A model generated the notes under the pieces. The model did not search any database. It worked only from the letters and a program-made list of their open reading frames with translations, and was not told the DNA's origin. This document shows, one piece after another, positions 9,001-35,800 of a DNA stretch of 64,000 nt. The DNA lies in NCBI GenBank assembly GCA_037379345.1, contig CM074516.1:46165626-46229625 (forward strand), in the 5' to 3' direction. Made by a program: the position numbers and the translations under genes. Source of the DNA: Perna viridis. Its lineage: Eukaryota. Every line of letters starts with the position of its first letter. Positions within the stretch are counted from its first letter, which is position 1.

Positions 9001-12000
9001 GTAATGGAAAACTTCTCCTGTCTTTGAATTTTTTGAAATCATCATTTCACTATTTTATATTTCTATAACCACAATTGTCACTTTATAGATAATGTGAAGG
9101 ACATCTATGAGAAGGCAATGACTCCTCCTGCTCCCAGTCCCCCTCCAACACCCCAGCCAAAGAGGACCAAAGCTGACTGGGAAAGGGACCAGAGAGAACT
9201 AGCCGAGGAGCAGGAAGGGAGAAACTCACTCAAAAATAAGAAAATACCAGCTTACTTTGACAGTGAATTTGGAAAAGCATTTTTACTATCACAGGTATAT
9301 TAATTTCACATACAATTCAAGTTGAAATTGAAAGTTGTTAGCAGGAACAAAAATCTGATGTAAACTCTTCACTACTTGTGGTAATTAAGTACAATTTATC
9401 TACATATTTGATATTGAAATGTTGGTCTTACATTCCTTTTATAGTGTAGTAGGCTTAATACCAATAAATCTTTGAAAACAATACCTGGTTTCAAGAATGA
9501 TTTAAAATCAAAGTTTCTTGTTTAACACTACTTAACAAAATAATTGACCTCAATTTCCTTATTTGTTCAAGGCCAAAGATGTAGATGACATACTGCAACA
9601 GTTATCTGAAGATCCACGTAAAGATGGTACAGAGGCTGTCCGTGGTAATTCCTCTAATCAGAGTAACAAGGACCAGATCAGCCCTGTCACTAGTGCACAT
9701 CCTGCTAGGTGTAAGTTAAATCTTGTCAATATACAAACACTGGTGCACATCCTGCTAGGTGTAAGTTAAATTTGGACAATAAACATCAGTCCAGTCACTA
9801 GTGCACATTTTGTTAGGTGTAAGATAAATTTTGGCAATAAATAAACACATGTTGCACATACTGCTAGGTGTAAGTTCTGAACACTAAATAAACCCTTTTG
9901 CACACCCTGTTAGATGTAAATTTAATTTGGACAATAAACACTAGTTCTGTCACTATTGCAAATCTGGCAAATAAACAAACTTGGGACGATCCTTTTTTTA
10001 TGCTTAGTATCGAGAATCTTCCTTTTACTTACCCCATGTCTAAATATTGAGAGTTTCTTCATATCAATGTGAATTATATGTAATTTTTTAAGCTCCTATT
10101 TAGCGTTGCCAGACTTTTGTGTATGTTGATGGGCCTTACATGAGGAATATCAGGATCTGCATGTAGGGTTCAGCATTGTTATCACATTCGAAGTTTAGTT
10201 CCAATCTACACATTTTGTTAATCCTTATTCTAATATGGCATGCTTTAGACCACAGCCATGGTAATTAAATGATAAACATATGTCAACATCATAGACGTAT
10301 GATGCTCTAATTTTAACCAATTTTACAGACTCACAATGGAATTTTACTCCAAAGCAGTTGCCAATTCATGCAACATGGTTGTTTATATCCCAAAATATGG
10401 AGATACTAGTCCTATTAGAATCGAAATAAATCATGGAAACTCCATACTATCATTGATATACCACAGGCTGGCAATTTATGTTGTTATATAACCCCACGCT
10501 ATCACTCAGGGTAAAACAATACGATCTAAAATTGGGCAGCCCATAGTAAAACAATGATAAAATAGGAGTGTCCATGATTTATTTCTTAAAATATACATCC
10601 CTTATTTTAGTCCTTATCAGCTATGTTAAACCTGCTATTTCATATTTGCTTTGTACACATTATATACTGGTGGATGGAATATTATTTGCACATTATATTT
10701 TGATTTTTAGCACTAGCTGCAGTCACATCTGGACAGAGTGATCGGTCCAGTGCTTCCCCTGGCGAGCCCCTTACACAAAAACCTGCTCCAGGGACCCCAA
10801 TGTCTTACTCAGGTAATCATTTCACATTTTTTCATTTCTTTAAGTCTTGCATAACAATGAAAAATAAGATTTTATAACAGTGTTTCAAGTATTACATCAA
10901 ATTTTGCATGCAAGGACACAATGGTTATACATTAGTCAGCTTTTCTTTACTTGTTTTGTATTTGTTTTATATTATCCATTCCTATTTTTTAGTAATGTAA
11001 ACATAAAAACTAGTGTCCCCCTTTTGGTAGAGAAGATTTAAAATGATACTGCCTTGATTTACAGTATACCCTGAAACTGTGCCTTCTAGAGGAGGTATAC
11101 GCCCAGGTAACCCCACCCCAGCACATGCAGCAGGTCAGGGGTCACCAGCACCTATCAGGCCAGACAATCCTACCCCAGTACATGCAGGAAAAACTGTTGG
11201 TGGTAGGCCTAGTATGTATTATTGGAAAAAGCATTGTTATCAGAAGCAAAACTTATTATTTACTTTTTATATTGTTATTAGGTAATTTGAACTGGATGCT
11301 TAATGTAAATGATGGTAGATTCATATTTACAATATATTTCATTGTAAAATAGCTTTTTGCATAACTGCACTGCTTTTTAAATATACAATACACTGAGCAA
11401 ACATATAGATGCTGCTTCTTTACTCATATTGGTACGGGATTTAAAATTGCACTATGTCATTTATTTTCTCCATTTTAGCCAATCCTACACCTAAGCATGC
11501 TGGAGGTATGGAATCTCCCTCGGATCTGCCATCTCAAGTTGACTACCCTGCAGTAATAATGGAACATCCCACGCTGGAGGAAGGGTGTAAGTCTGAGCAT
11601 AGTTTCTTTCTCAAATCACTTATGAAATTATGTAGATGCAAAAGGCAATACATGATGATATAAACTTTCAAAGTTAATTTTGTAATTTATAACTCTTTTC
11701 TTAGGAAAAAAGGAGGACGTTGTTACCATTGGACTAATTGTGACATAGGTTTTTTTAATCTTTTAGAATAGTTTACAAAAGGATGAAATTTTCTTTATGA
11801 GGGTCATGAAAATAGAGTCTAAAATAAATTGTATTAAATGAAGTTAGAAATAAAGTGAGTACCATATTTTGGTGTGTATAATGCACATTTATGTATTGTG
11901 TGCAGTGCAATTTTGAAGGTCAAAACATGTGAAAAAAAGTTTTTTTAGACATAGATTGCAGTAAAATTTTGTAAGACAGAAGATCGATATTTTGCACTTG

Positions 12001-15000
12001 ATCGGTCAATTTATGTACTTTGATCAAGTATTTCCTACGTAAATGTGAAGGAAAGAAACTTATTTTCACACTTTAACATCATGTTAAGATCAGTAGCTAC
12101 ATAAATTGGAAAATTTTAATTTTGAAGCATGATAAAATTGACACAGGATGCATGAAATGGCTTATAAAACAAAATCAAAGGTCGGGAAAATTGGACATTT
12201 CCAGTTTTGGTTGTTACTCAAATTTTGTAATTTTTCTTTTCAAAACATACTTAAAAGAAAGAAAATTGATAGAAACAATCAACATAAGTTTCAAATTAGC
12301 CATTTTTAGCTGCAAAAGCTTTCAATAAGGAGGGTTTGACAAAAAAAGGACTTTGTTACTTATTGGTTTTCAGTCGTTTCATTTTAATCTCTAAGCATGT
12401 TTTAAGAAAGAAATATTGTACCACCTATATCTGAAACATGTTATTAATACATTCAAACTTGATTTGAAGACAATATCTTTTAAAATTCAATTCTTAAAGA
12501 TGTTTTTGATAATTATATAAACTTTCTTTCAGTAACTTATCACTTCCAGTTTGTTTGTTTACATTACGCAATCTCTTTTCTCTTATAAAAATCTTTTATT
12601 TCTTGGCCAAATCTTACATATTGAGGCATAATACAAACTCTCATTGACTGGAAATTAAATATGCACATAATACACACCAAAATACAATTCTTCAGATCAT
12701 GACAATATTGTAGAAATGGTTGTATATATAGTATGTTTTGTCTGTCTACAGATACCCAGGATGAGATTGTTACTGGAGGGGACCAGGATGATAACATGAT
12801 CCGAAGTCTGAAGATGGATGTTACAGGACAGCCTCGTAGGAACCCAGTACCTGTACCTCCTAAAGGTGGAAAACCTGGGGCTATACCTAACACTAGGGTA
12901 GGTCATATATAACCTGGTGCTGTATTTAAAACTAGGTTATGTCACATAAAACCTGAGGCTATACTTAACACTAGGGTATGTCACATAAAACCTGGGGCTA
13001 TACTTAACACTAGGGTATGTCTCATAAAACCTGGGGCTATACTTAACACTAGGGTATGTCACATAAAACCTGGTGCTGTATTTAACACTAAGGTATGTCA
13101 CATAAAACCTGGGACTATACTTAACACTAGGGTATATCACATAAAACCTGGGGCTATGCTTAACACTAGATTATGTCACATAAAACCTTGGGCTATACTT
13201 AACACTAGGGTATGTCATATAAAACCTGAGGCTATACTTAACACTAGGGTATGTCACATAATAACCTGGTGCTGTATTTAACACTAGGGTATGTCACATA
13301 AAACCTGGGGCTATACTTAACATTAGGGTATGTCACATAAAACCTGGGGCTATACTTAAGACTATGGTATGTTACATAAAACCTGGTGCTGTATTTAACA
13401 CTAGGGTATGTCACATAAAACCTGGGACTATACTTGACACTAGGGTATGTCACATAAAACCTGGGACTATACTTAACACTAGAGTATGTCACATAAAAAC
13501 CTGGGGCTATACATAACTTACCTTAAGGGGCATACTTAATCACGTATGATTTGCATTGAGAAAACATACCACATTCTGTCTTTAACATGGCCAGACAACT
13601 AATTTAGATTAATTCTGAAAAACAGAACCAACAACAACAACAACAACAGGCATTTAGTATAAAATAAAGGACCTTGAGTTATCAATGATATCCTGTTTAT
13701 CAAGTTCCCAGATACATGGCTAGAGAGAATCATTTAAATATTTGTTCTTAGTATTAATTGTGTGGTTTGAATGTAATACAAAACTTTAGATTTGGTTTCT
13801 GTTTTATTTTTAGTTTCAAATGGTTGAAGATCCAGTTAAAAGAAAAACAAAGAACTCTCTGACTGTAGGCTCATCAGTCAAAGGTCAAATGGAGTTGAAT
13901 CAGATGAAAGGACTTATACTGCTGCCCCTGGAGGCAGACTTTGGAGTGTTGAAGGAGGGCAATACATACAGCTATACTGTCAACTTGAAAAATACTGGTG
14001 TAGAGTCATGTCGGTTCAAACTAAAACAACCACCCCCTTCAACTGGTCTCCGAGTGGTATATAAACCAGGACCAGTAAGTGTTAATATATAATGACTTAA
14101 GGTAGATCAAACCTATCACAGCATTCTTTTCTGTTTTCTTGTAAAATCATTCAGAAGTATGTAATGAGCAAATAGTGTTTGAAAAGATGCAAAAAACTTG
14201 TCTTCAAATTATTCAAATAGAATTTTTTGGCATAAACTTTTATATGGTAAAATTACAAACATTAATTTTATTAATCTTCTTTCAAGGCGAGATAATTGAC
14301 ATAAATATTTTCTGTATAAATATAATGAGAATTTTAGTTTTTTTAATATTACAAAAACAACTACAGTGACCCTCAATTTTCTTTTTGAAAAATGAAATAA
14401 TGACAGATGACTGTTCTGTATACAAACTTATAAGGAATATTATCGACCAGTTTTTAGTATCAAGAGAAACTGTGAAAATATATAGAATGTTGTAAAAATT
14501 GCATTAATTTAGGCTCAATTATCTCTAACATTGAGTTTAGTGTCCTATGTTTTTATCTTAAAATTTAACAGTATGCTTGTTCAAGGTCAACTTTGAGCAA
14601 AAATAGAAAAATCTATCTGTTAAAATTATTATGTATAATCTACAGAAAGTTTCTGATGAATTGAATAAATATGAAACATTGCTGGATATATATTTGTCAA
14701 CATTTATTTAGATTGCAGCAGGAATGAAGAGAGAGTTGAATCTAGAGATATATGCTATAGCTGTAGGAGTTGAAGGTGAATCAGGGGTTGGTTCAGTAAG
14801 TCATGACCTTGAGATTGTCACAGAAACAGATGTCCTATTCCTACCAATATCAGCAACAGTTCTAACAGCCTATGAGTATGAGAACAGAGAACCCAATAGT
14901 CCACATGGAGTTCAGTCTCCTGGTACCAAACTGGTTTCTCTCAGACCCCCAGCTACAACGGGTATCATCAGACCTAGGAAGGAATCAGTTCTATCAGGTA

Positions 15001-15218
15001 GGGAACCAGTACGACGACAGGAAGTCATGGCTGTTCAGAACACCCTCAGACCTGTAAGGCCACCACCTTATAAAAGTATTGTACGTCCAACAGAGGAAGA
15101 TTTGATGTCTGGTCAGAATTCTTTTAGGCACTCTCGACCTCCAGCTTACTCTGGTATCCTGCCTCACACACAGGACCAGTTAATGTCGGGTCGATCCTCA
15201 CTTAAACCATACTATTAG
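1..15218 (+). CDS. SPAG17: Sperm-associated antigen 17 / PF6-like central-pair protein, 3' portion (5' end lies upstream of the window)
   Basis: Phase-consistent GT-AG exon chain: 1-160, 799-989, 1797-1919, 2336-2447, 2638-2805, 3212-3379, 3662-3792, 4132-4264, 4593-4771, 4945-5080, 6366-6556, 6738-6879, 7284-8154, 8372-8535, 9089-9294, 9572-9710, 10711-10812, 11065-11211, 11479-11586, 12752-12897, 13814-14074, 14712-15218. Recognisable SPAG17 motifs: FTGYDVGNKLIHVSG..LFPSDGGQI, LYVTCPDGL, SRVITSEGTVIKNMVDGSVEVLYADG, TTIVEHADGTRITT, HAPRFFIVHADGSGTELMRY, and a C-terminal PapD/ASH-like domain (DFGVLKEGNTY..LKNTGVESCRF..YKPGPIAAGM). Confidence 0.9.
338..720 (+). mobile_element. Non-autonomous dispersed element with a ~180-bp foldback, copy 1
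   Basis: Inverted arms aataagtaggataattaattgg / ccaattgattatcctatttatt and gtgaataaccaaaatattatcac / gtgatcatattttggttattcac; reverse-complement homolog at 33395-33752. Confidence 0.7.
1385..1612 (+). repeat. Fragment resembling bivalve Helentron/HINE-associated satellite-like repeats
   Basis: Motifs ggagttattg, tcttttcctctgaaactac, ttcaatgaaacttggtagg and aaacatggcc resemble, from memory, these mollusc repeats; not confirmed by a search. Confidence 0.4.
7284..8154 (+). CDS. SPAG17: Largest SPAG17-like internal exon (871 bp)
   Basis: ttgcag|GT acceptor and CA|gtaagt donor; overlaps ORF 7322-8158; contains HAPRFFIVHADGSGTELMRYQD. Confidence 0.9.
9677..9965 (+). repeat. Tandem ~50-58-bp repeat of exon end + 5' splice site
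   Basis: About 5 copies of actagtgcacatcctgctaggt|gtaagt..; GT positions 9711, 9761, 9819, 9870, 9916. Confidence 0.9.
10423..10585. mobile_element. Palindromic MITE-like element
   Basis: gaaataaatcatggaaactccatactatcattg is a near-perfect inverted repeat of caatgataaaataggagtgtccatgatttatttc. Confidence 0.65.
12870..13512 (+). repeat. 39-bp tandem repeat of exon end + 5' splice site (~16.5 copies)
   Basis: Unit AAAACCTGGGGCTATACTTAACACTAGG|GTATGTCACAT; the first copy is the real end of exon 12752-12897. Confidence 0.95.
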
Positions 15219-15844: not shown

Positions 15845-15855
15845 GCACAGTGTAG
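15845..15855 (+). CDS. SPAG17: Candidate alternative terminal coding exon of the SPAG17-like gene (..SG-T-V-stop)
   Basis: Internal phase-1 donor TCAG|gtaggg at 14997/14998. A strong pyrimidine-rich acceptor (tttttgttcttccattttcag|GC ACA GTG TAG) at 15844/15845 gives an in-frame stop. Confidence 0.55.
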
Positions 15856-17678: not shown

Positions 17679-19345
17679 GAGTAATCAGAGAACCAAGGTT
17701 ATAGCGGTAATCAAAAGAATGCAATCCAGGGACAAAGACCAGACATGGAAAACAGACATACACAACAAAGATCATAAAGTAACTAAAATCATACACACAA
17801 AGTAACAAAAGCAAATGAGCAGCTAGGACTCCACTAAAAACTGGGAGCATGGACCAGGTGCAGCGGTAGGGTAAGCATCCCCTGCTTTTCTAGAAACACT
17901 TGCCGAGTTGCTCATAAAAAGTCAAGTCCAGGGTAGACAAACGAGGAAAGGAAAACTATGACCCATTGAATAAATCAGTTTTCATGGTGCTGATGGATAC
18001 ACCATGATCCACGAGTTCATGATGACGACGATAAAACTTCTGTAGTGATGACTTTAATCTTGTAGCAACATAACCCTGTTCTAGAAGACTATTTGTTAAG
18101 AGTTCTAACACGATACAAAAAGTCTGTATAGTTTCGGCAAGCTCTGGCATAACGTATGAGTTGTGATATGAACACTCCATACGCAGGTGCTGAAGGGATG
18201 TTGCCACAGATGAAAGGAAAGTTGACAATTTTGAATGAAAAGTCGTCACGTTTGTCGTAAAGTTTGGTCAATAGTTTTCCTTTACCATCGATTTCTAAGT
18301 GTAGGTCAAGATATGAGGCTTCACAGTGTCTGTAGTATCCTTTATCTCAAGTTCTTTTGGGTAGATGCGATGTATCAAATCCACGAAATTTGGATTGTTT
18401 AAAGATAGTACATCATCTATATAGCGGAAACTGAGATTGAAGGATCTAGCCAAACGATATATTTTCTTTCGGATCAGATCAGCTATGAAGTCAGCCTCAT
18501 AAGAGTCAAGGAGTAGGTCAGCAAGTAAATGAGCACAATTTGTTCCCATTGGAATGCCGACCGTTTGTTGAAAAACACGTCCACCACATTGGACAAATAT
18601 GTTGTCCATTAAAAATTCCAGCATTTTGTAAACATCTTCCTCTGTATATTTGGAAGATGATTTGAAATTATTTCTTACAAAGTATGAGGAATCTCTGCCA
18701 AGAACTATATATTTGTATCTAGGTGTACCATCTTTTTTGGAAAAACAACGATGTATAATGTTTTTAAGTCGGGATTTTAACTGAGTATGGGGAATAGAAG
18801 TATATAGTGTTGAAAAATCATAGGTTTAAAAGCCATTATATTAAGATAATAGTCTTGAACTGATTGTCTCCAAAAGATCTTTCGAATTTTTCGGGATCCA
18901 CATTGAATTAATACCACTACAGGAGTAACAAGTGTTGTGGTAGGACTGCATGCCCTCTTTGACAGTTGTGAGTATAGAAGTTAAATGTTTTGAAAGAGGT
19001 TTGGTGGTACATTTTGCAGATCCAGCTATGAAATGTTGTTTGTATGGATTCTTGTGAAGTTTAGGAATCCAGTACATAGACGGTAAATCACAGTCATCGT
19101 CCCTGGTAGAGAGACCAAAAGAGGATAGTACAGATTTATGGTTTTCCACAATCTCTTCTTTGGAGAGAGTGGTAGCAGTATAGGTCTTGTCACTGCTATT
19201 ATTTTCTACGTCTACCTCTGATAATAAACATTGGATATAAAACGTTTCGCAGACAAAAACGATGTTGTTTCTGGCTTTGTCTGCTGGTACGACAACATAT
19301 TTGTCATGTATAGTAGACAATGTTTTTGCTACATCGGGGTCAAAT
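17679..19345 (-). mobile_element. 5'-truncated, frameshifted Penelope-like retroelement (RT + thumb + 3' tail; no C-terminal GIY-YIG visible)
   Basis: Consecutive minus-strand fragments: VVVPADKA..SMYWIPKLHKNPYKQHFIAGS; YDFSTLYTSIPH; QTVGIPMGTNCA..FRYIDDVLSLNN; KLYDKRDDFSFKIVNFP..YGVFISQLIRYARAC; KFYRRHHELVD. A ~280-bp non-coding tail follows at 17679-17955. Confidence 0.85.
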
Positions 19346-19669: not shown

Positions 19670-20505
19670 AGTAATATGGCAGGTTTTTCATGGCAGAGAG
19701 TAAATAAAGTCTCTTTTTAAAAAACATCCACACTCACTGTAGTGTCCCGCGTAGCATTTGGCAAAGCGTTCCATTGAAAGGCAGCAAGTCTATCAAATCG
19801 TCTTTCACCGTATGACTTTGTTCGGGTAGTTGATGTTTCTAACAAAGATTGAGATCCCGATCTCAAAGATCTATAGATTTTAATCAGTTCTTGGATGTAA
19901 AACGGAGCTTTGCTTGTAAGAGCTTTGAAAACGTACAGCAACAACTTGAATTGACAACGGTAAGAGACGGGGAGCCAATGGAGAGATTTCAGCACTGGGG
20001 TAATATGACCTAATTTCCTTTTCCTTAATATATCTAGCGGCGGGATTTTGAATTCGCTGTAGCCTTTGAATTTCACCACTTCGGAGTCCATATAAAAGTA
20101 CATTCCCGTAATCAAGTCTTGATATTATCATCAAGCAAACAGGACTTTTACATGCGTCTTCTGTGATGTAACGACGAATAAGGCCAATATTGCGAATCTG
20201 ATGAAAGCAAGATTTTGATATTGCACTGATCTGTTTTGTCATCGAGAGTGTTTTGTCAAAGTAGACTCCTAAGTTCTTAACATAATCAGTATTACTTACG
20301 ATGTAAGTAAAACGAAGACTACAGTTCGAGAGGTCTTTGGCTTTATGTTTTGGTGCGAAAATAATCAGTTCGGTCTTATCTTCATTCAGCTTTAGCATAT
20401 TACTACACACCCAGAAGCTTATATCGGAAAGGCAAGATTCAAGTCGCTCAGATATCTTGTTCCAGTTATCTAGCGGTTGTACAACTAGATATACTTGCGT
20501 ATATA
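19670..20505 (-). mobile_element. L2/CR1-clade LINE reverse transcriptase C-terminal fragment (degenerate)
   Basis: NMLKLNEDKTELI, VKNLGVYFD, SRLDYGN.LLYGL, LQRIQN.AAR, HITPVLKSLHWLPV, WNALP; frameshifted across ORFs 19880-20410 and 19717-20115. Confidence 0.85.
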
Positions 20506-21410
20506 AGTTCTTCTTGGCATGTGGTGTTAAATGTGGATTTTAGTCTTTCGAATTGTCTTCTGCGCCTCTTCCTTATGTTATACTTTCGCCTTCTAATCTG
20601 ATCTTGTCTGGTTGGCACGGATATCTTGATCTTCAATTTAGCCAAGTTGATGATCGGATGCTATATCAGCATCTCGATAAGCTCAAACTGCTGTCATGTT
20701 TTTTCACCATCTCCTGGTGACTGTAATGTGGTCTATCAGATTTCTAGTTTTCATCTCTGGAGACATCGGGCTGTTTTATGTATATGCTTGTGAGGGAGTT
20801 GGAATGTCGTGCCTCCTAGGACCAGATCGTTCTGGGAGCAAAAATCTGCCTTCTGAGTTCTCCATTATCGTTGATGTTACCAATTCATTACTTCCCCGTG
20901 ATGTGTTCTCTCCCTGTGTTATCTTTTCAAACTTTGGCATTCATTTCACCTATTACAATCGAGATGCCCCAAGTGTTGTTCTTGGGTAGCTTGGAGCTGG
21001 TTGTAAAACTCTTTTTTGTCTTCTTCCTCTGCTACGTTGGTAGGAGCGTAACATTGAATGACTGTTACTTTTTGTATCTTTGACATAAATCTTGCCACGA
21101 TAAATCTTTCACTAACAGAATTCCATTCGATGAATGGTGATTTGGCCTTCATGTTGAGTGAGATTTCTACTCCATGTTGATGGTTGCCATCCTCGTTTTG
21201 TTGTCCAGAGTACGTACAGTCGAGTTAGTATTGAAGGTAGTATGACCGCTCATGATGATGTCTATCTAACTTCGTCCAAAAATATCAAGGTTGTAGCGCT
21301 CCATTTCTATTGCAGCCTGAGCAGCTTTTCCGGTGTCGTATTGTGTCTCCATGCTCCAGCTTGCAATCATCGAGGTAGTCTTACGGGATAAAAGTTTCAT
21401 CGGCGAATGA
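20505..21410 (-). mobile_element. RTE-clade LINE APE endonuclease fragment (degenerate)
   Basis: EMERYNLDI.G.S, IEWNSVSERFIVARF, VIQCYAPTN.AEEEDKKEFYNQLQ; downstream NLIDHI and DADIASDH motifs are readable in broken frames. Confidence 0.8.
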
Positions 21411-23902: not shown

Positions 23903-24301
23903 CGTGAAGCCTCCATGTAACAGGGGTTTACAGATATAACTACTGTCTCAAACGTGAAGCCTCCATGTAGCAGGGGTGTACAGATATAACTACTATCTCA
24001 CTATTGTTATCAACTATATTTCACGTGATTGATATTATCTCTTCAAATCCTTAGATAAAAATATTTATACATTGTCAATAAATAGCAGGGATGTACTGAG
24101 ATAAAACTACTGCCTCCAACGTGAAGCCTCCATGTAGCAGGGGTGTACAGATATAACTACTGCCTCCAACGTGAAGCCTCCATGTAGCAGAGGTGTACAG
24201 ATATAACTACTATCTCACTATTGTTATCAACTATATTTCACGTGATTGATATTATCTCTTCAAATCCTTAGATAAAAATATTTATACATTGTCAATAAAT
24301 A
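23903..24301 (+). repeat. Nested direct duplication (50-bp units within a 217-bp period) upstream of the TMEM135-like ATG
   Basis: cgtgaagcctccatgtagcaggggtgtacagatataactact at 23903, 23953, 24120 and 24170; 23953-24083 is nearly identical to 24170-24300. Confidence 0.92.
24021..24245. promoter_or_regulatory. Two TCACGTGA E-box sites (24021-24028, 24238-24245) produced by the upstream duplication
   Basis: Palindromic bHLH-ZIP site in both copies of the 217-bp unit, 56 and 273 bp before the ATG; function inferred only. Confidence 0.3.
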
Positions 24302-26659
24302 TGGAAGAGGAAGGAGAGTCCAGACAACAAAAGAAAGTTCGGATATTGGCCAAAAAGTTCGTCAAAAGATTCTCAAAAGGATTCGGCAGTGGAGTCGTAT
24401 TGTATACTGGCGTTAAAATTGTGTCTGCGTTGTTACGAAATCCGTTTCGGGAAAGGTAAGTGCATTCACCGCATGACCCTAGAGGGAAAGTTTTTTTTTT
24501 GCTTTTTTGTCTTGTTTTTGTTTTTATTATTTTTTTGTCTTGTTTGTTGTTGTTGCTTGTTGTTATGTTTTCATTGTTTTGCTTTGCTTGTTTTTCTGTT
24601 TCTGTTTTCTCCATTGTGGTTTGCTGGAATACGATTGATGATCCTTGTTAAAAATGTCACGTTTAAAGCAACTCAGTTGTTTGTGTTTTTCTTGACTTCA
24701 TTATTTTGTGTTATTTGTGAATCTTTACTTCAGATTTCCTGCCGTTCTGAAGGAGATAATATCTACTGACTGCCTTAAGCTAGCATCCTTTTTTGGTCTT
24801 TATCCAAGCGTTTACGAATTTGTCAGAGAAGTTCTTCAGTTAAAAAGGAATAAAAAGGTAAGCTGGTGGTGTATTTTTTAATTGTTCAAAAGGTTCGAGA
24901 CCTTGGCTAATGTGAACATCCTGATGCATCATACCCACACAAACAAGAAAAACTAAAAACGCAAACATAAATACGACAACCCCAACAACCAGAGAACGGT
25001 AAAAAATGTCGCTTCGTCACTTGAACACGTTTCATAGTTCAGTTTATAAAAAACAGTATTAAATTGTATTTTTGTCAGCTAAAATTTTCAATAATGATGT
25101 GAATCATTTTACGGTCGCAGAGGATACGCAGCTTTGTTTGCATCATTACAAAGACTAGAATTGCGAGAAAGATCATTTATTCAATATTTGATTTCTAGCA
25201 AGAACATATTACACAATAATGAATAACCATATGAATAAATGACATTACAAGATGCAAAGGTGGGGCCTAAAAGTGACAAATATCCCTGCAAAGGGACCCC
25301 CCACCCACAAGTATTAAAACTGTATATTGATTTATAGTGACCCTGTAGAATAGTCGTTGTGTTGTAAGTTGTACTAGATCTTTCTATATATAGATCTCGA
25401 TAGATATAATCTATTTTTAGGATGGATGGAATAACTGTATAGCTGGTGGCATTGCAGGATTAACTATCATCATAGAAGATCCCACCAGACGACAAGTGGT
25501 GACACTGTTTGCCATCGCTCGTGCATTCGGTGCACTTATATCTACCTTAGTTACCAGAGGACAAATTCCATATATACAGTTCAGTGAGACTGCTCTGTTC
25601 TCGCTGTGCTGTGGTTTTCTAGTGTATGCCGTGGCCCTGAACCCACAGCTTTTATACACAGGATATTACTACTCCGTCCTTAAGTGGTCCAGAGACTATA
25701 CAGACAAGAAACTCAATGTCTTATTCAGAAACCCTGGGCCTAAGTTCTTAACCTGTTCTGAGGTTGGACTACACGAAGACAGCTGCACGAGACATGCTTT
25801 TAAAGATTTTTTTCAGAGTATTCCAGCATTCGCTAAGTTGTATTTTCCAATTCACGTAACACCGGTTGTTATCTTCAGAAGAAAATTACTATTGGAGAGG
25901 TGAGTGGGTTTAGTAAACCGCAATAAACTTTGGCATTGCAAACTGAAAAAGAAAAGGAACATAGCGACAGTCAAAATATTTTTTACCACACTAAATACCA
26001 TTGTACTCAATTCACGAGTTTGGTGCCGGTCCCAAAACGCACAGTTCACTTTTAAGAAAAATAAATTTGTGACTAACTTAGGTTTTCATGTGATACTAAC
26101 ATTTACTACGTGTATCCCTTTTAAGTTTTAAAGCTTCTGTTTTGGGAAACGTAATAGTTGTCCACATATAAAAATTGTGTTATTTACTTTTAGACCAAAG
26201 CGAGTTCTGAAGTCGCTGGTGAAGAACACAGTATTCTCGACTGCTTTCCTCGCCACAATGGTCATGTTGGCCAAGTACGTCATCTGTTTGCTGAGGAACT
26301 TACAGCACCAACCTCCACCATTAAAGACCCACATTCCAGTTTTAGCCGGTTTTGCCTGCGGGTTGAGTGTCCTCTTAGAACGGGCAAACAGGCGGAAAGA
26401 ATTGACACTATTTCTCATCCCACATACACTGTACGCGTTATATCAATGGGCATTACAGAAGAAAGTCATCAGACATATACGATATAGTTCTGTAGCTTTA
26501 TTTAGTCTTTCTATGATTTCTATCATGCACGCTTATGAGCGAGAACGAGACTCACTTTCTATGTTATTGAATGGACTATTAAGGTACTTCGTTGGTGAGA
26601 GTGAAAATCGGATACCAAGACCCCAAAGAACGAGGAACTTAAGTGACATGGTTGGATAG
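24301..26659 (+). CDS. TMEM135-family (peroxisomal/mitochondrial, Tim17-like) multi-pass membrane protein, 407 aa
   Basis: Exons 24301-24455, 24734-24857, 25421-25899 and 26194-26659 total 1224 nt, all GT-AG and in frame. Motifs: KKDGWNNCIAGGIAGL..RRQVVTLFAIARA; Cys/His motif TCSEVGLHEDSC followed by KLYFPIH; STAFLA..YVICLLR; GLSVLLERANRRKELTLF. Confidence 0.85.
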
Positions 26660-29951: not shown

Positions 29952-32815
29952 TTATACAAATGTAACCTCTGTATCAACGTAAGTCCAGGATTCATGATCT
30001 GACGAATGATTTGGTGAAATCTGTACGTTTCCTGAACTTCGACTAGAGGCATCAGAGTCATCACTGAAACTGTCTCGTGCTTGGGGGCCACCCAAACGTC
30101 TGTGTGAAACAGATGACGTAGTCAAAGGAATGTTTGCACTATTTTCAGTATTTGAGCTGCTACAACTACTGTTACTTGAGGAGCTCATACGAGCATTGTC
30201 GCGACGAAATGGGGGAGGAGGCTGATAAGGTGGAGGAGGTGGGCGACTTTCTGTTGCCTGAGAATTACTTGGCGACATTTGTCCTGATCTGTCATAAACA
30301 GATCGTAAGTTTTTGACACTCCATGGCAACTCAGTATCCCTTTTAGGGGTATTATCCCTTGACAAATTTTGTGAGCTTGTAACATCCCTTGATGCTGATG
30401 GAACTGAGTCTCTTTTTGATTTCCATACAATAGTATTCTTTGATTCAAATTTGTTGGTTGCACTACTGCTTTGTTGAGCACTACTTCCCCTAGCACCACC
30501 AAGATAACGAGGTTTGGGAGTTATATCTCTTCTTTCAAAATCTCTGGAGTATGAATTAGAACGATCCTGAGAAAGTGATGAATCCCGAGATTTGATAGAG
30601 TATCGTGACTCAACCGATGTATCTCTACTCTGTTCATTTGAGCTTCTCCGTGATTGAGCACTATAACTTTGAGCAATACTGTCTGAAGTTTTGGGGAAGA
30701 AGTGTCGACCAGTGACAGGACTGGAATCTGATCGATCACGACGATACGGTGGAATCTGTTGGTTTTCTGTAACAGTGTCTGATGAACTATTTGATACACT
30801 AGATGATGAATAATTTAATTGTTTATTTGGAGCTGTATTCCTATTAGCACCAGTTGAAAGTCTATCATTAGCAAGTGGTGATTTTTCTCTAGTTGGACTC
30901 CTATGAGCCCACATACCTGCTTTATCAGATGAGTCACTGTAACTGCGATGTAAACTACTTGGGGACAACAAATGACTGTCCTTAGAAGATTTACTGTCAG
31001 GCACGTTATTAGTACTTTTTTGTTCATAGGCTTTCATTGACTCCTCGTAAATCTTTTTTGGATCTTTTTTACACACTATTAATTCCTCCTCACTACTGTC
31101 AGAAGTCTCACCTTCACTCTCCTCCTTTTCATCAATTACCTCCTCCTTTCTTGGAACATCTTTATGTTCCATGTTTTGAACACTAGGGCTATTCAAATGC
31201 TCCTCCATGTATTTGCGTAGTGATTCTTCATACAATTGTTTTGCAAGTAAACTTGCCTCTTTCTGCTTTTGGCTATCTTGTTCTGATATTTCCAAAGGAA
31301 TTCCATGCTTAATCATAAATGTTCTCTGACAAGCCTCATCATAAGAAGGCGGTTTTTCTGGTCGGCTTGGAGAACTTGATAGTGTTCTATTGATATCACC
31401 ATCACTGTCACTTTTAACTAAAGGAAATGGATGTGTAGTTAACTTTGGGACATGAAGTTCTGAATGATGGTAGTCTTGGTTTCTCTGCTCACTCCCAGAG
31501 CTACCAGAATCAGTACTATTCCTGCGTACTTGAGATAAAATGGCACTGTCATGACTTGCACGCATTGGGGCTATTTCACGTTTATGCTGTTTCTGATGAT
31601 TTCTTAAAATGACGCCAGGAGGTGGCGATGTACCAAGTCCATATTTTGTAAATGCCTTCATGGGCATATTTTGTCTAATGTCATTAGTAGAAGCACTAGA
31701 ACCATTTTTCAACATAGGTGAGTAATGTTCACTGTCTTTTTGATCGTGAAATTCACAAGCAGTAAGCTGATATCTGGGTCTGATTATGTCCTCAGCTTCT
31801 TTAAAACTGTCTGATCCTGAACCCTTACTTGCATTAGAATAGTCCAGAGGAAAAGATCTTCTAACAGAAACATTCTGTTTAGATGAGTCAGAATTGAACA
31901 CTTTATGGGAGGTTTTAGGTGACACTGGTGGTGACACAAGGTAGTTGGCACTTTTCTTAGAACTGTTTGACCTCTTTGCACTACTCAAATGACTACCAAC
32001 TGATGCATCATCCTGACTCTCCTGAATTCTGTTGCTACACGCACTCCAAACCGAGAATTGTGATTCATGTGAAGGTATAAATGATGAACATGATGATGAA
32101 TGAGGAATACCACTGTCAATTGAACTACCGGTAGAAAGTCTTGACTGAGGTGACATTGGTGGGTTACTTTCTGTTACAGAAGATTGTCTTGTAAGTTTCC
32201 CACTGTTACCATGACGCTGAGTTTGGATTTCACACTCAGATACATAGTGTTTATTGCTAGATTCCTTATTCTCATCGAAATACAAATGAGCACCACTAGA
32301 AGATTTGGTTAATGTTCCAAAATCTGCATTATGCACATGTAAAAACTGAGTTTCTCTTTCTATATCTACCATATCTTCAAGAGATCGTAAAGACTCACAA
32401 GAGGCCCGTTTCAATTTCTGATAATTCTCAGCACTATAACTTTGGGTCATATGATTTCTAGCACCTTTATCAATGTCTTTTTCCATTAAATATTCACGTT
32501 TCTTATTTTTTCGTGGAGGTGGCTTTGGATTTTCAAATGCAGTATCGTAACTCCGACTCACAGTATTTTCTGTATATTTCAATTTCTCAGAATCTCTTTC
32601 CATATATTGTGAAACACTTCTGTTATAATTTTTCCTTTCTGACAAATTTTCAGTACTACCATCCTCATCGTAAAGCTGAGCATCACTCAGCGTTAATCCT
32701 GAGTCTCTACTAAGATTTGAAGGAGATAGATGACTTTTCACAAGGTTAGGACTATGATCCAGATCTCCGATGTATAAATCACTATCTATAGATAAGTTGT
32801 CTGGTCTCATACCAC
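29952..32815 (-). CDS. ARHGAP20: Terminal 2.86-kb exon of the ARHGAP20-like gene (Ser-rich disordered tail)
   Basis: 952-aa ORF behind a ttttacag|GT acceptor; SRDSGLTLSD motif near the start; ends in ..TEVTFV*. Confidence 0.88.
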
Positions 32816-35800
32816 CTGTAAAAAGTAATATATCAATGTACTATATAATTAAACACACCTAAAATTTGGAGTTGTACCATATATTTCTTCTTTTTGTTGG
32901 AAGTAACATACATTCCTATAAGCAATTAGAGTTACCTCCCTTACAAAACAAATCAGTTAAGGATGTTAGTTTTTCAATTTCATCTTTTTTTTCCAAAAAT
33001 GCAATGAATTATGAGATAAACTTACTTCCTGAGTCCTGTGCACTAAGGTAGCTATGCATGCTGTCTGAGTCTGTACTTGAATCTCTACACTTCTCTTCAC
33101 CAAACAGATGGAGTGTCTCGTCACCAAATACTGCACCACAATTATCTATGAGGTACATTATTGCCTTATGTGGTGTTTGATTTGCCATTGGATCCTTAAC
33201 TTGTTCCTTTGACCAAAGAATACTTGGAGTGATGCACACAGCTAGATTGTATGATGTCATCATGTTCTCACTGTGTTTATCTTGTATGTGGTGTAGAACA
33301 CAGATTAAATGGCGTAAGAGGTCAAAATTTGATGGTGGAATTTTGAACAACAACCTGCAAAAAGGAAAGATGTTCAGCATCATCTATATACCTTTCTATC
33401 ATTTAGATAGCAGTGTTTTATCTATGTTCCCAGTGTGATACCAGTAAATTTCAATAATTCACAATGTGAAATAAATTCGGGAATTTCACTCTCGGACTTT
33501 CTACCGCCAAAACATCACAACTTTGATATAAATCCGCCTACCGCAAAATTTAAAATTCATGTTGAAAATATAAAATATTATAAATAGGACAATCCATTGT
33601 TTATCACGAATAACAAAAATAAGATCACTCATGCCAAGAACACTTGAATATTTAACTCATTTGCGGAACAAATTCCACAAACTTGTCAAATCTAAGTGTT
33701 CTTTGGCACTCATGATAATATATTTGTTATTCCAATTAATTATCCTATTATTAATGAGCAAAGTTACACAATTATGCAAGTCGAAATTTGCAACAACAGA
33801 AGTTTTGATTTTATTTTATTTTGCCTTAACTTTCTACTATCAGAGCCGTTACCCTGATTCAAAGTATACACAGAACTCATCAATTCTCTTTAGTTTTCAA
33901 CTATTACATCTTATGTAAAGGTCCATTTTCATTCAATCTCAAAGTTAAGTGTTAGATCTAGATGCAGACATTTTATTTTATTTATGACATTGTTTGAAAT
34001 TTTTTGTCTCTTTGTAGTTACTACACCTATAGAACAATAATTATGTGATAATTACAGGTAAGCCTGAAGGATCCTAGATAATATCTGGTATTCAACAGGA
34101 AAAAGAGAAATCAGATTTCTGTGATAACAAAAAATCTCTTTTTATCATAAGCTATAACTCCAGGCATTTGTATTAAATAAGTAAAATCATTTTATCCCTT
34201 TCTATTTGTTAAAGCTGTTTAAATGTAAATTTTATTCAAACATTGTAATTTTGTGTAATGTTATTTTACACCTGAAATAACTTGCCATTTACCTTGACAA
34301 AGGGAAATAGTTACACATTATTTTTTCCTCCCTAAAAATTGTCCATAAAATTGAGTTATTAATGTACACCTGTCTTTCAAAAAGCAAACTGAAATGTCAT
34401 ATTCAGTTGAAGGGTTTCTGTTTCAAGTTTTGATAAGAGAGAGTCACATTAACATTTTCTTAACATCAATTAATACTGTATGTAATTATTTGCAGTATAA
34501 TCTCTTCATTAAGTAGAAAGAATTTCAATTCGAGTTGATGAAAGACCAATGTGTCCTAGAACTGACCTTAAAAGAATGGTTTTCTAGGTGTGGCTCTTAT
34601 TGGAAGTTTTTTTTTGTGCTTATCATTACAGTAACTAAATTCTCACACTAAAATAAACCATGCCCAAAATCTTATAACAGTAATCAGTCACAATTGTGAG
34701 AATTAATTTTTTTTGTAAAGACATAACTTAAGTGTCAACATCCTTTAAAGGTAGTTAAGTTTTATGGATGCTAAATATAAAATCAGATATGGTCTAATAG
34801 GTAGTGACATCAACAGTTTTTATTATTTTAAGAAGTTTATGGTGATGAATTAAGACTGGTGGTACTTTTATATAATGTAACTTCACTCCTTGTATTAGGT
34901 TAGATAAGTGGGAACATAAAATGCCTTAAAGCTATCGTCAAATAGATACTGATCTAAATGTCCTCATGTGTTGAACCTTTACCTTTAATTAAATCAAAAT
35001 TAAACTTGGAAATTCACTCCCCTTAATTACTGTGATTATACTAATTGAACTATTATATAGGTAAGAGTGAGGTCACATCGGTCAGGTCGTAGGTCAAGCA
35101 GGTCAGATTCACTGACACTTATGAATGTTAGAACAAATTTGACATACCTCAACAAGGACACGCTTTTTTAACACCAATTTTTTTAATGTTAAAATATTTT
35201 ACACATATAATTTCCTTTATATTTTATTATAAAGCGGAAAAGGTCATTGGATATATTTATTAACGCTTGGTAAATTTAATAATTACAATTACTATGAACA
35301 CACTTTATTACTGTTATTACCGTAGTTTGAGGTCAATGACCAAACATTTGTATGCTTTTTACTGAAGAATTTCTATACTTGCCTTATTGTTTAATGACAA
35401 TAGAAATTTTTGGTCTGAGTGCACTATACCTAAATAAGGAGTTAAATACTAGACTTATCTTATACTTAAAGAAGGGTGCTAGAATTTATCTTATTTTATC
35501 AGATACATCAGACAGACAGTAATCTGAATTGTTATAAGGAGTTTGTGAGACTCTATCACCCTTTGTATGAGTGCCACTGTAAATGATTAACTAGTTACTT
35601 TCTTGGTATTCCCCAGTCCTTACAGTATTTCTATTGATACTTACTGTTTAACTTTGTTCATCTTGTTTGGAGAATCATCCTGCTCACTGAGAGCCACCCA
35701 TTCATTATAATGATCCTCCAACAGAAGGCAGTGAGGTAAACTACGGAGATATTCCTTCAGGACAGCCCCAACAACCAACGTCTGAAGGTTGTCATCCAGA

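Follow-up and report, generated by a model that had tools for sequence, protein, structure and literature searches.

A minisatellite of exon-end and donor copies in the SPAG17 gene of the mussel Perna viridis, with its first donor in use and an in-frame stop codon that is likely incidental

The stretch of DNA analysed here (the window) comprises 64,000 nucleotides of contig CM074516.1 in the Perna viridis assembly GCA_037379345.1 (positions 46,165,626 to 46,229,625); the 3′ half of SPAG17 occupies its first 16 kb, on the plus strand. About 35 exon-like matches were found across the window and the 20 kb upstream of it. A TMEM135-like gene (24250-26659, plus strand, with a weak Pfam match of E 0.0067) lies tail to tail with a RhoGAP gene (29952-33383, minus strand), which has a last exon of 962 codons and matches the RhoGAP domain with E 8.7e-13. 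Between 17336 and 22618, four arrays of one 34-bp unit are found amid ORF fragments (17956-18825, 19717-20539 and 20946-21224) that were judged by eye to be reverse-transcriptase-like and endonuclease-like. Within SPAG17, a MITE-like element at 11865-12684 with 24-nt inverted ends (88% complementary) occupies the intron directly upstream of exon 12752-12897; in DNA runs its summed contig depth reaches up to several hundred times that of the flanks.

Our analysis revealed a minisatellite in SPAG17 that begins inside this exon and continues into the following intron (Table 1). The final 28 nt of the exon form the start of the first 39-bp unit, and the copy number given by Tandem Repeats Finder (16.6 copies, 88% matches) agrees with the first-pass annotation, which had recognised about 16 copies of an exon end plus donor. 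Also as annotated, the unit is open in the SPAG17 frame (consensus KPGAILNTRVCHI, 13 codons) and the native donor joins the acceptor at 13814 in frame. The exon entered there matches Pfam PF14874 with E 9.8e-08, shows 90% identity to Mytilus edulis SPAG17 and has its own donor at 14075. Three linked differences are common to four of 16 units (at 12913, 13069, 13265 and 13382), and further variants are shared among two to three units each. Since these variants are linked and recurring they fit multi-unit duplication, which the annotation had read correctly. The native unit retains the Pro of a conserved PN motif, and the consensus of the units has Leu. At 12887 the native unit has C and the copies T. 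A search of the 723-Mb assembly with a 28-base pattern, allowing at most two mismatches, returned 11 matches, all inside the array (reversed-pattern control, 0 matches), and a separate DNA search placed four of four matches there. A dispersed element or transposon as the source of the unit was therefore ruled out. The repeat frame gave six Pfam matches, all of them weak and below curated cut-offs, and these were rejected.

Table 1. Coordinates of features at the SPAG17 locus, as positions in the window.
Feature	Position	Strand	Evidence
Second exon-end plus donor array in SPAG17, period 50, 5 copies, 72%	9688..9940	+	Tandem Repeats Finder; X12 contig
SPAG17 coding exon, 146 nt, C-terminal KPGAIPNTR	12752..12897	+	RNA-type contigs X10, X12; tblastn vs Mytilus SPAG17
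39-bp minisatellite, 16.6 copies, unit 1 across exon-intron border	12870..13517	+	Tandem Repeats Finder
Authentic 5′ splice site AGG/GTAGGT	12898..12903	+	X12 contig runs from 12897 into 13814 exon
In-frame TAA where unit 1 meets unit 2, intronic codon 5	12910..12912	+	Sequence; T in exon-anchored DNA contigs of X2, X3
Donor position of unit 2, inactivated, TT not GT	12937..12938	+	
Seven intact in-phase pseudo-donors: 12976, 13015, 13054, 13093, 13132, 13210, 13249	12976..13254	+	
1-nt insertion (extra T, one 40-nt unit), breaks frame	13262..13262	+	
Six intact out-of-phase pseudo-donors: 13289, 13328, 13367, 13406, 13445, 13484	13289..13489	+	
Next SPAG17 exon, opens FQMVEDP, start of PapD-like (ASH) domain	13814..14074	+	Pfam and homology
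Read-through extension, 73 open codons, 47% GC (28% beyond)	14998..15218	+	

The earlier statement that most copies carry AGG/GTATGT stands for nine of the 15 downstream units, which have it exactly, and GT is kept in 13 of 15, but units 2 and 8 have TT instead (12937 and 13171). GTATGT is a working donor elsewhere in SPAG17 (11212). By a simple match count against the U1 complement, the native donor has six matches and two wobbles and a typical copy six matches and one wobble, a count that lends no support to the proposal that the copies are at least as good as the native site.

Of the 24 sequencing runs listed, 20 contained part of the downstream stretch, and contigs of four were aligned over 10600-12947, namely two RNA-type runs from two studies (X10 and X12) and two DNA-type runs (X2 and X3). 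RNA-type is a predicted label, none of the runs being recorded as RNA, and is supported by GT..AG joints. X10 and X12 gave one contig each, in which three GT..AG introns are skipped and the exon is covered exactly from 12752 to 12897. In X12, the sequence at the loose end past 12897 is that with which the 13814 exon begins, and depth past 12897 is zero. Mean X12 depth over 12891-12947 is 9.84 and exon depth is 80.1; by hand arithmetic the lower value equals 80.1 from seven exonic bases spread over the 57-nt bin, and X12 thus does not extend beyond 12897. In X10, the join from 12897 to 13814 was derived from identical record offsets. This run also has repeat-unit contigs and other intronic DNA, and because of these intronic pieces it is uninformative on retention. 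The most upstream donor is therefore used, with the exon ending at 12897 in two of two RNA-type runs, and this holds for the major RNA form, since contigs drop rare forms. No pseudo-donor junctions were found in the assembled contigs of the two RNA-type runs over 10600-12947, a set from which rare forms are lost. A candidate alternative donor at 12866 was rejected; it is out of frame and the RNA contigs do not end there. Contigs of the DNA-type runs break inside the array, the X2 record 13 nt and the X3 record 39 nt beyond 12947.

The TAA at 12910-12912 is present as the first-pass annotation had described it, and any product of a later donor would include it. Its T is found in both DNA samples, one of which may be the assembly source, and this is compatible with the first-pass reading. 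An A>T polymorphism at 12910 was considered and rejected, as A in one X2 and one X10 contig comes with copy-type letters at 12906. Given these letters (and those at 12901 in the same runs) together with the repeat-unit loose ends of X10, the A-bearing contigs most likely represent later units. The T may simply derive from the ancestral intron, as its base +13, with the AA of the first copy following it. It had further been held that this one stop guards the array. This was overstated, as unit 2 also lacks GT and the frame is also broken at 13262, where the extra T would end it at 13279 even without the TAA and puts six of the 13 intact pseudo-donors out of frame, leaving seven in phase. An early in-frame stop is common in the intronic sequence of SPAG17: of 3336 intronic start points, a fraction of 0.33 meets a stop within 5 codons, and over the 26 codons that lead to the first intact pseudo-donor the fraction is 0.86, which is the chance expectation for a stop such as the TAA. 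Two of the 117 single-base changes of the 39-bp unit create a stop, so that 22 distinct variants would yield at least one with a chance of 0.32. Distinct variants among the copies are distributed 7/6/6 over codon positions 1/2/3 and therefore give no sign of protein-level constraint on the array.

The junction at the array falls in a conserved KPG..PN..F..VEDP motif. Among 85 distinct segments drawn from 132 homolog proteins, 60 have the KP-to-EDP spacing of 13 that is seen in the window, 14 have a spacing of 10, and in 11 it is other or undefined. None of the fetched homologs had two KPG[AS][IVL] motifs in one protein, and none had an array-derived isoform or insert at the conserved motif. 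An insert at the KPG..VEDP junction would likely be harmful rather than useful. The earlier idea of a latent peptide insert of variable length finds no support in these results, given the frame break at 13262, the dead nearest pseudo-donor, the even spread of variants and the fixed-length motif; moreover, an early stop is the normal intron state here, and the stop-free pseudo-sites of human F7 discussed below are unused too. As regards a coding VNTR, the repeats are absent from the RNA contigs, variants show no codon-position bias (7/6/6) and homologs are without an insert.

The second exon-end array in SPAG17 reiterates CTAGGT/GTAAGT and has donors at 9711, 9761, 9819 and 9870. The first of these is the one in use: in X12, the loose end ahead of 10711 has letters of unit 1. 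It is used even though the reading frame stays open beyond the second donor, with no stop before that donor and no mutation in it; because the 50-bp unit is not a multiple of three, use of a later donor would still cause a frameshift. In Mytilus, this array's exon end appears as a stop-free 26-aa repeat, in 12 copies, in two models from a single contig, and the other full-length proteins have one copy of the exon end in 13 of 13 among those listed. This count rests on 15 proteins listed, with 40 read of 95 members, and concerns predicted proteins from different assemblies. It suggests that the Mytilus array is unguarded and frame-preserving and still spliced out. The repeat of the exon end measures 50 bp in the window and 26 aa, or 78 nt, in the Mytilus edulis model; either the two mussels carry duplications of different unit length, or both arrays are diverged forms of one old array.

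A donor-array screen of 264 kb found 53 arrays with 10 donor-like matches, and missed the array at 9688. Among these 10 matches, the 39-bp array was the only one with a homology-confirmed exon in front, and a genome-wide enrichment of exon-end arrays is not claimed. Nearby arrays with donor-like GTAAGT, GTATGT or GTGTGT lie in L010 (4838-9764), L018 (1763-2471), L021 (2890-3685) and L024 (4474-4902), and the screen confirmed no exon in front of any of these four.

At the 3′ end of the gene, the donor of exon 14712-14997 lies at 14998. A very short candidate last exon, 15845-15855, would give the protein end SG-T-V-stop, like the SGTI-stop of Mytilus. The read-through extension contains two degenerate copies of the final 19 codons of exon 14712-14997. 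Differences between copies outside the anchor fall on codon positions 1/2/3 as 9/4/11, 8/5/11 and 6/3/9 (of 16) and thus lean towards position 3, with Fisher p of 0.03-0.08 for pairs that are non-independent and were chosen by protein likeness. A repeat of the terminal motif was found in none of the 78 homologs having that motif. Both RNA contigs end 548 nt after 12897, which is 14998 if the predicted exons are followed, and such an end would fit a branch between spliced and read-through forms. The segment 14998-15218 may go back to an old duplication of the exon end that has been retained to encode an alternative C-terminus.

Arrays across a donor have been described from other animals. In human F7 intron 7, the first unit of a 37-bp VNTR lies across the exon-intron border (Borensztajn et al. 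2006, PMC1557585); F7 minigenes used the most upstream donor only, the next was used when the first was killed, and pseudo-sites that create no stop were unused too. The same paper cites further human donor minisatellites in IFI6 (6-16), CBS intron 13, LMNB2 and PDGF, with two pseudo-sites used besides the authentic donor in the IFI6 and CBS arrays. Ebner et al. 2010 (PMC3087553) describe amphioxus 'mirages' (Adh3, BflGb6, BflGb9), in which exon-intron boundaries are duplicated in tandem, splicing stays normal and the edge units have diverged. Furthermore, a suppression of splicing, by which latent intronic 5′ splice sites preceded by a stop stay unused, has been proposed in human cells (PMC1524910).

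The mussel array has donor sequence reiterated in the intron, a first unit across the authentic border and a locally derived, single-locus unit, and it joins the F7/CBS donor minisatellites and the amphioxus mirages as a bivalve example of a known oddity. It resembles F7 in its border-spanning first unit, near-identical intronic donors, use of the first donor and similar unit length. However, 28 of 39 nt are exonic in the mussel as against 4 of 37 in F7, the mussel unit consists of whole codons, its copies number 16.6 as against 5-9, and at +4 they depart from its native donor. For F7, tests covered length polymorphism and the competence of pseudo-sites. CBS has 15-20 repeats, the second of which bears a substitution comparable to the loss of the second donor in the mussel; unlike IFI6 and CBS, where two pseudo-sites are used, none was seen in use in the mussel RNA-type contigs. 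With the mirages it shares a marine invertebrate host, several arrays per gene or family, normal splicing and diverged edges; for amphioxus, length and somatic instability have also been shown. Like the stop-guarded latent sites of human cells, the mussel intronic donors behind an in-frame stop stay unused; however, that proposal concerns a general state of most introns in human cells, and use of the first donor here needs no such rule. Our search found no literature on donor-spanning arrays in bivalves or in SPAG17, with most subscription journals outside its reach, and PMC10078293 contributed nothing on them.

Taken together, the locus is an intronic minisatellite that starts with an exon end and its donor, and assembled RNA uses the first donor. 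The copies are likely ignored because, among several equal donors, the one furthest upstream prevails, and the stop at 12910 is likely incidental rather than a guard. We consider this reading probable. A local duplication of exon end and intron start would have founded the array, which would then have grown via slippage or unequal exchange in multi-unit steps. The choice of the first donor would rest on oriented 5′-to-3′ selection or exon definition, the mechanisms examined in human F7. Leaky RNA from a later donor would carry the premature stop, and nonsense-mediated decay (NMD) would likely remove it because the stop lies upstream of further junctions (two more are predicted downstream). The NMD rule of 50-55 nt is assumed to apply to molluscs. 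Low-level use of later donors may occur, hidden by NMD and by the loss of rare forms from contigs.

Against an incidental stop, the TAA and the dead donor both lie directly behind the real donor (about 0.13 x 0.13, calculated by hand and post hoc). This adjacency gives a post hoc hint of selection, though edge units are expected to diverge (PMC3087553). A safeguard in which later donors competed once the duplication had arisen and the TAA and/or the GT>TT change of unit 2 was favoured, suppressing later donors or sending their products to decay, would suit this position, the presence of the TAA in both DNA samples and the fixed-length motif in which an insert would land. Precedents are the title of Yang et al. 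2000, which credits a substitution in the second CBS repeat with preventing alternate splicing, and the activation of latent donors by removal of in-frame stops (PMC1524910). Weak hints come from base pairing, which is predicted to be stronger at pseudo-donors than at the native donor (12 of 13 intact ones at <=0.05 versus 0.10), and from an array structure of z = -2.3 on 20 shuffles; RNA structure as a silencer of the copies was itself set aside as weak, 37 C parameters having been used. We nevertheless regard such a safeguard as unlikely, because introns of this gene normally run into a stop early (0.86), the 50-bp array uses its first donor without a stop before, or a mutation in, the second, a TAA at 13262, outside the SPAG17 frame, precedes another unit of the sub-variant that follows the TAA at 12910, and the F7 data (PMC1557585) oppose an open-frame rule.

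Regulated unproductive splicing, by which later donors would tune SPAG17 via NMD by tissue or stress with copy number as the dial, could draw on 13 intact donors with similar U1 match, on the reported activation of latent donors by heat shock in human cells (PMC3510495) and on the use of proximal pseudo-sites in IFI6 and CBS as cited above. It is very improbable given that no contig in the 10600-12947 part contains a pseudo-donor junction, no array-derived isoform occurs among homologs, and the unit is species-local with no sign of constraint. Least probable, and hardly to be expected, is that TAA-free alleles encode a SPAG17 enlarged by 2 to 9 repeats of 13 aa. The 39-nt open unit, the seven intact donors in phase and the older exon-end duplication at the SPAG17 3′ end that looks coding speak for it; against it are the TAA in both samples, homologs without an insert, the lack of codon bias and the frame break at 13262, and a unit derived from an exon is open largely by descent, a period divisible by three being expected in 1/3 of cases. 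A wider reading takes SPAG17 as a time series of exon-end duplications, in which the young 39-bp array was neutralised by two selected changes and the older 14998-15218 duplication was kept as a translated C-terminus; this we hold to be doubtful at best.

Donor arrays are a trap for gene prediction, as the Mytilus model that reads one through as 12 peptide repeats illustrates. In the literature, 'first donor wins' and 'stop-dependent suppression' disagree, and in-frame pseudo-donors behind one stop are a simple natural test of the two. Were the TAA found to be required, the 39-bp array would gain in importance, and translation of the 14998-15218 extension would mean that an exon-end duplication is shown creating new protein repeats. 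If the time series were true, SPAG17 would document the silencing as well as the exonisation of a donor minisatellite, and stop-dependent suppression of donors could be tested in a natural setting outside mammals.
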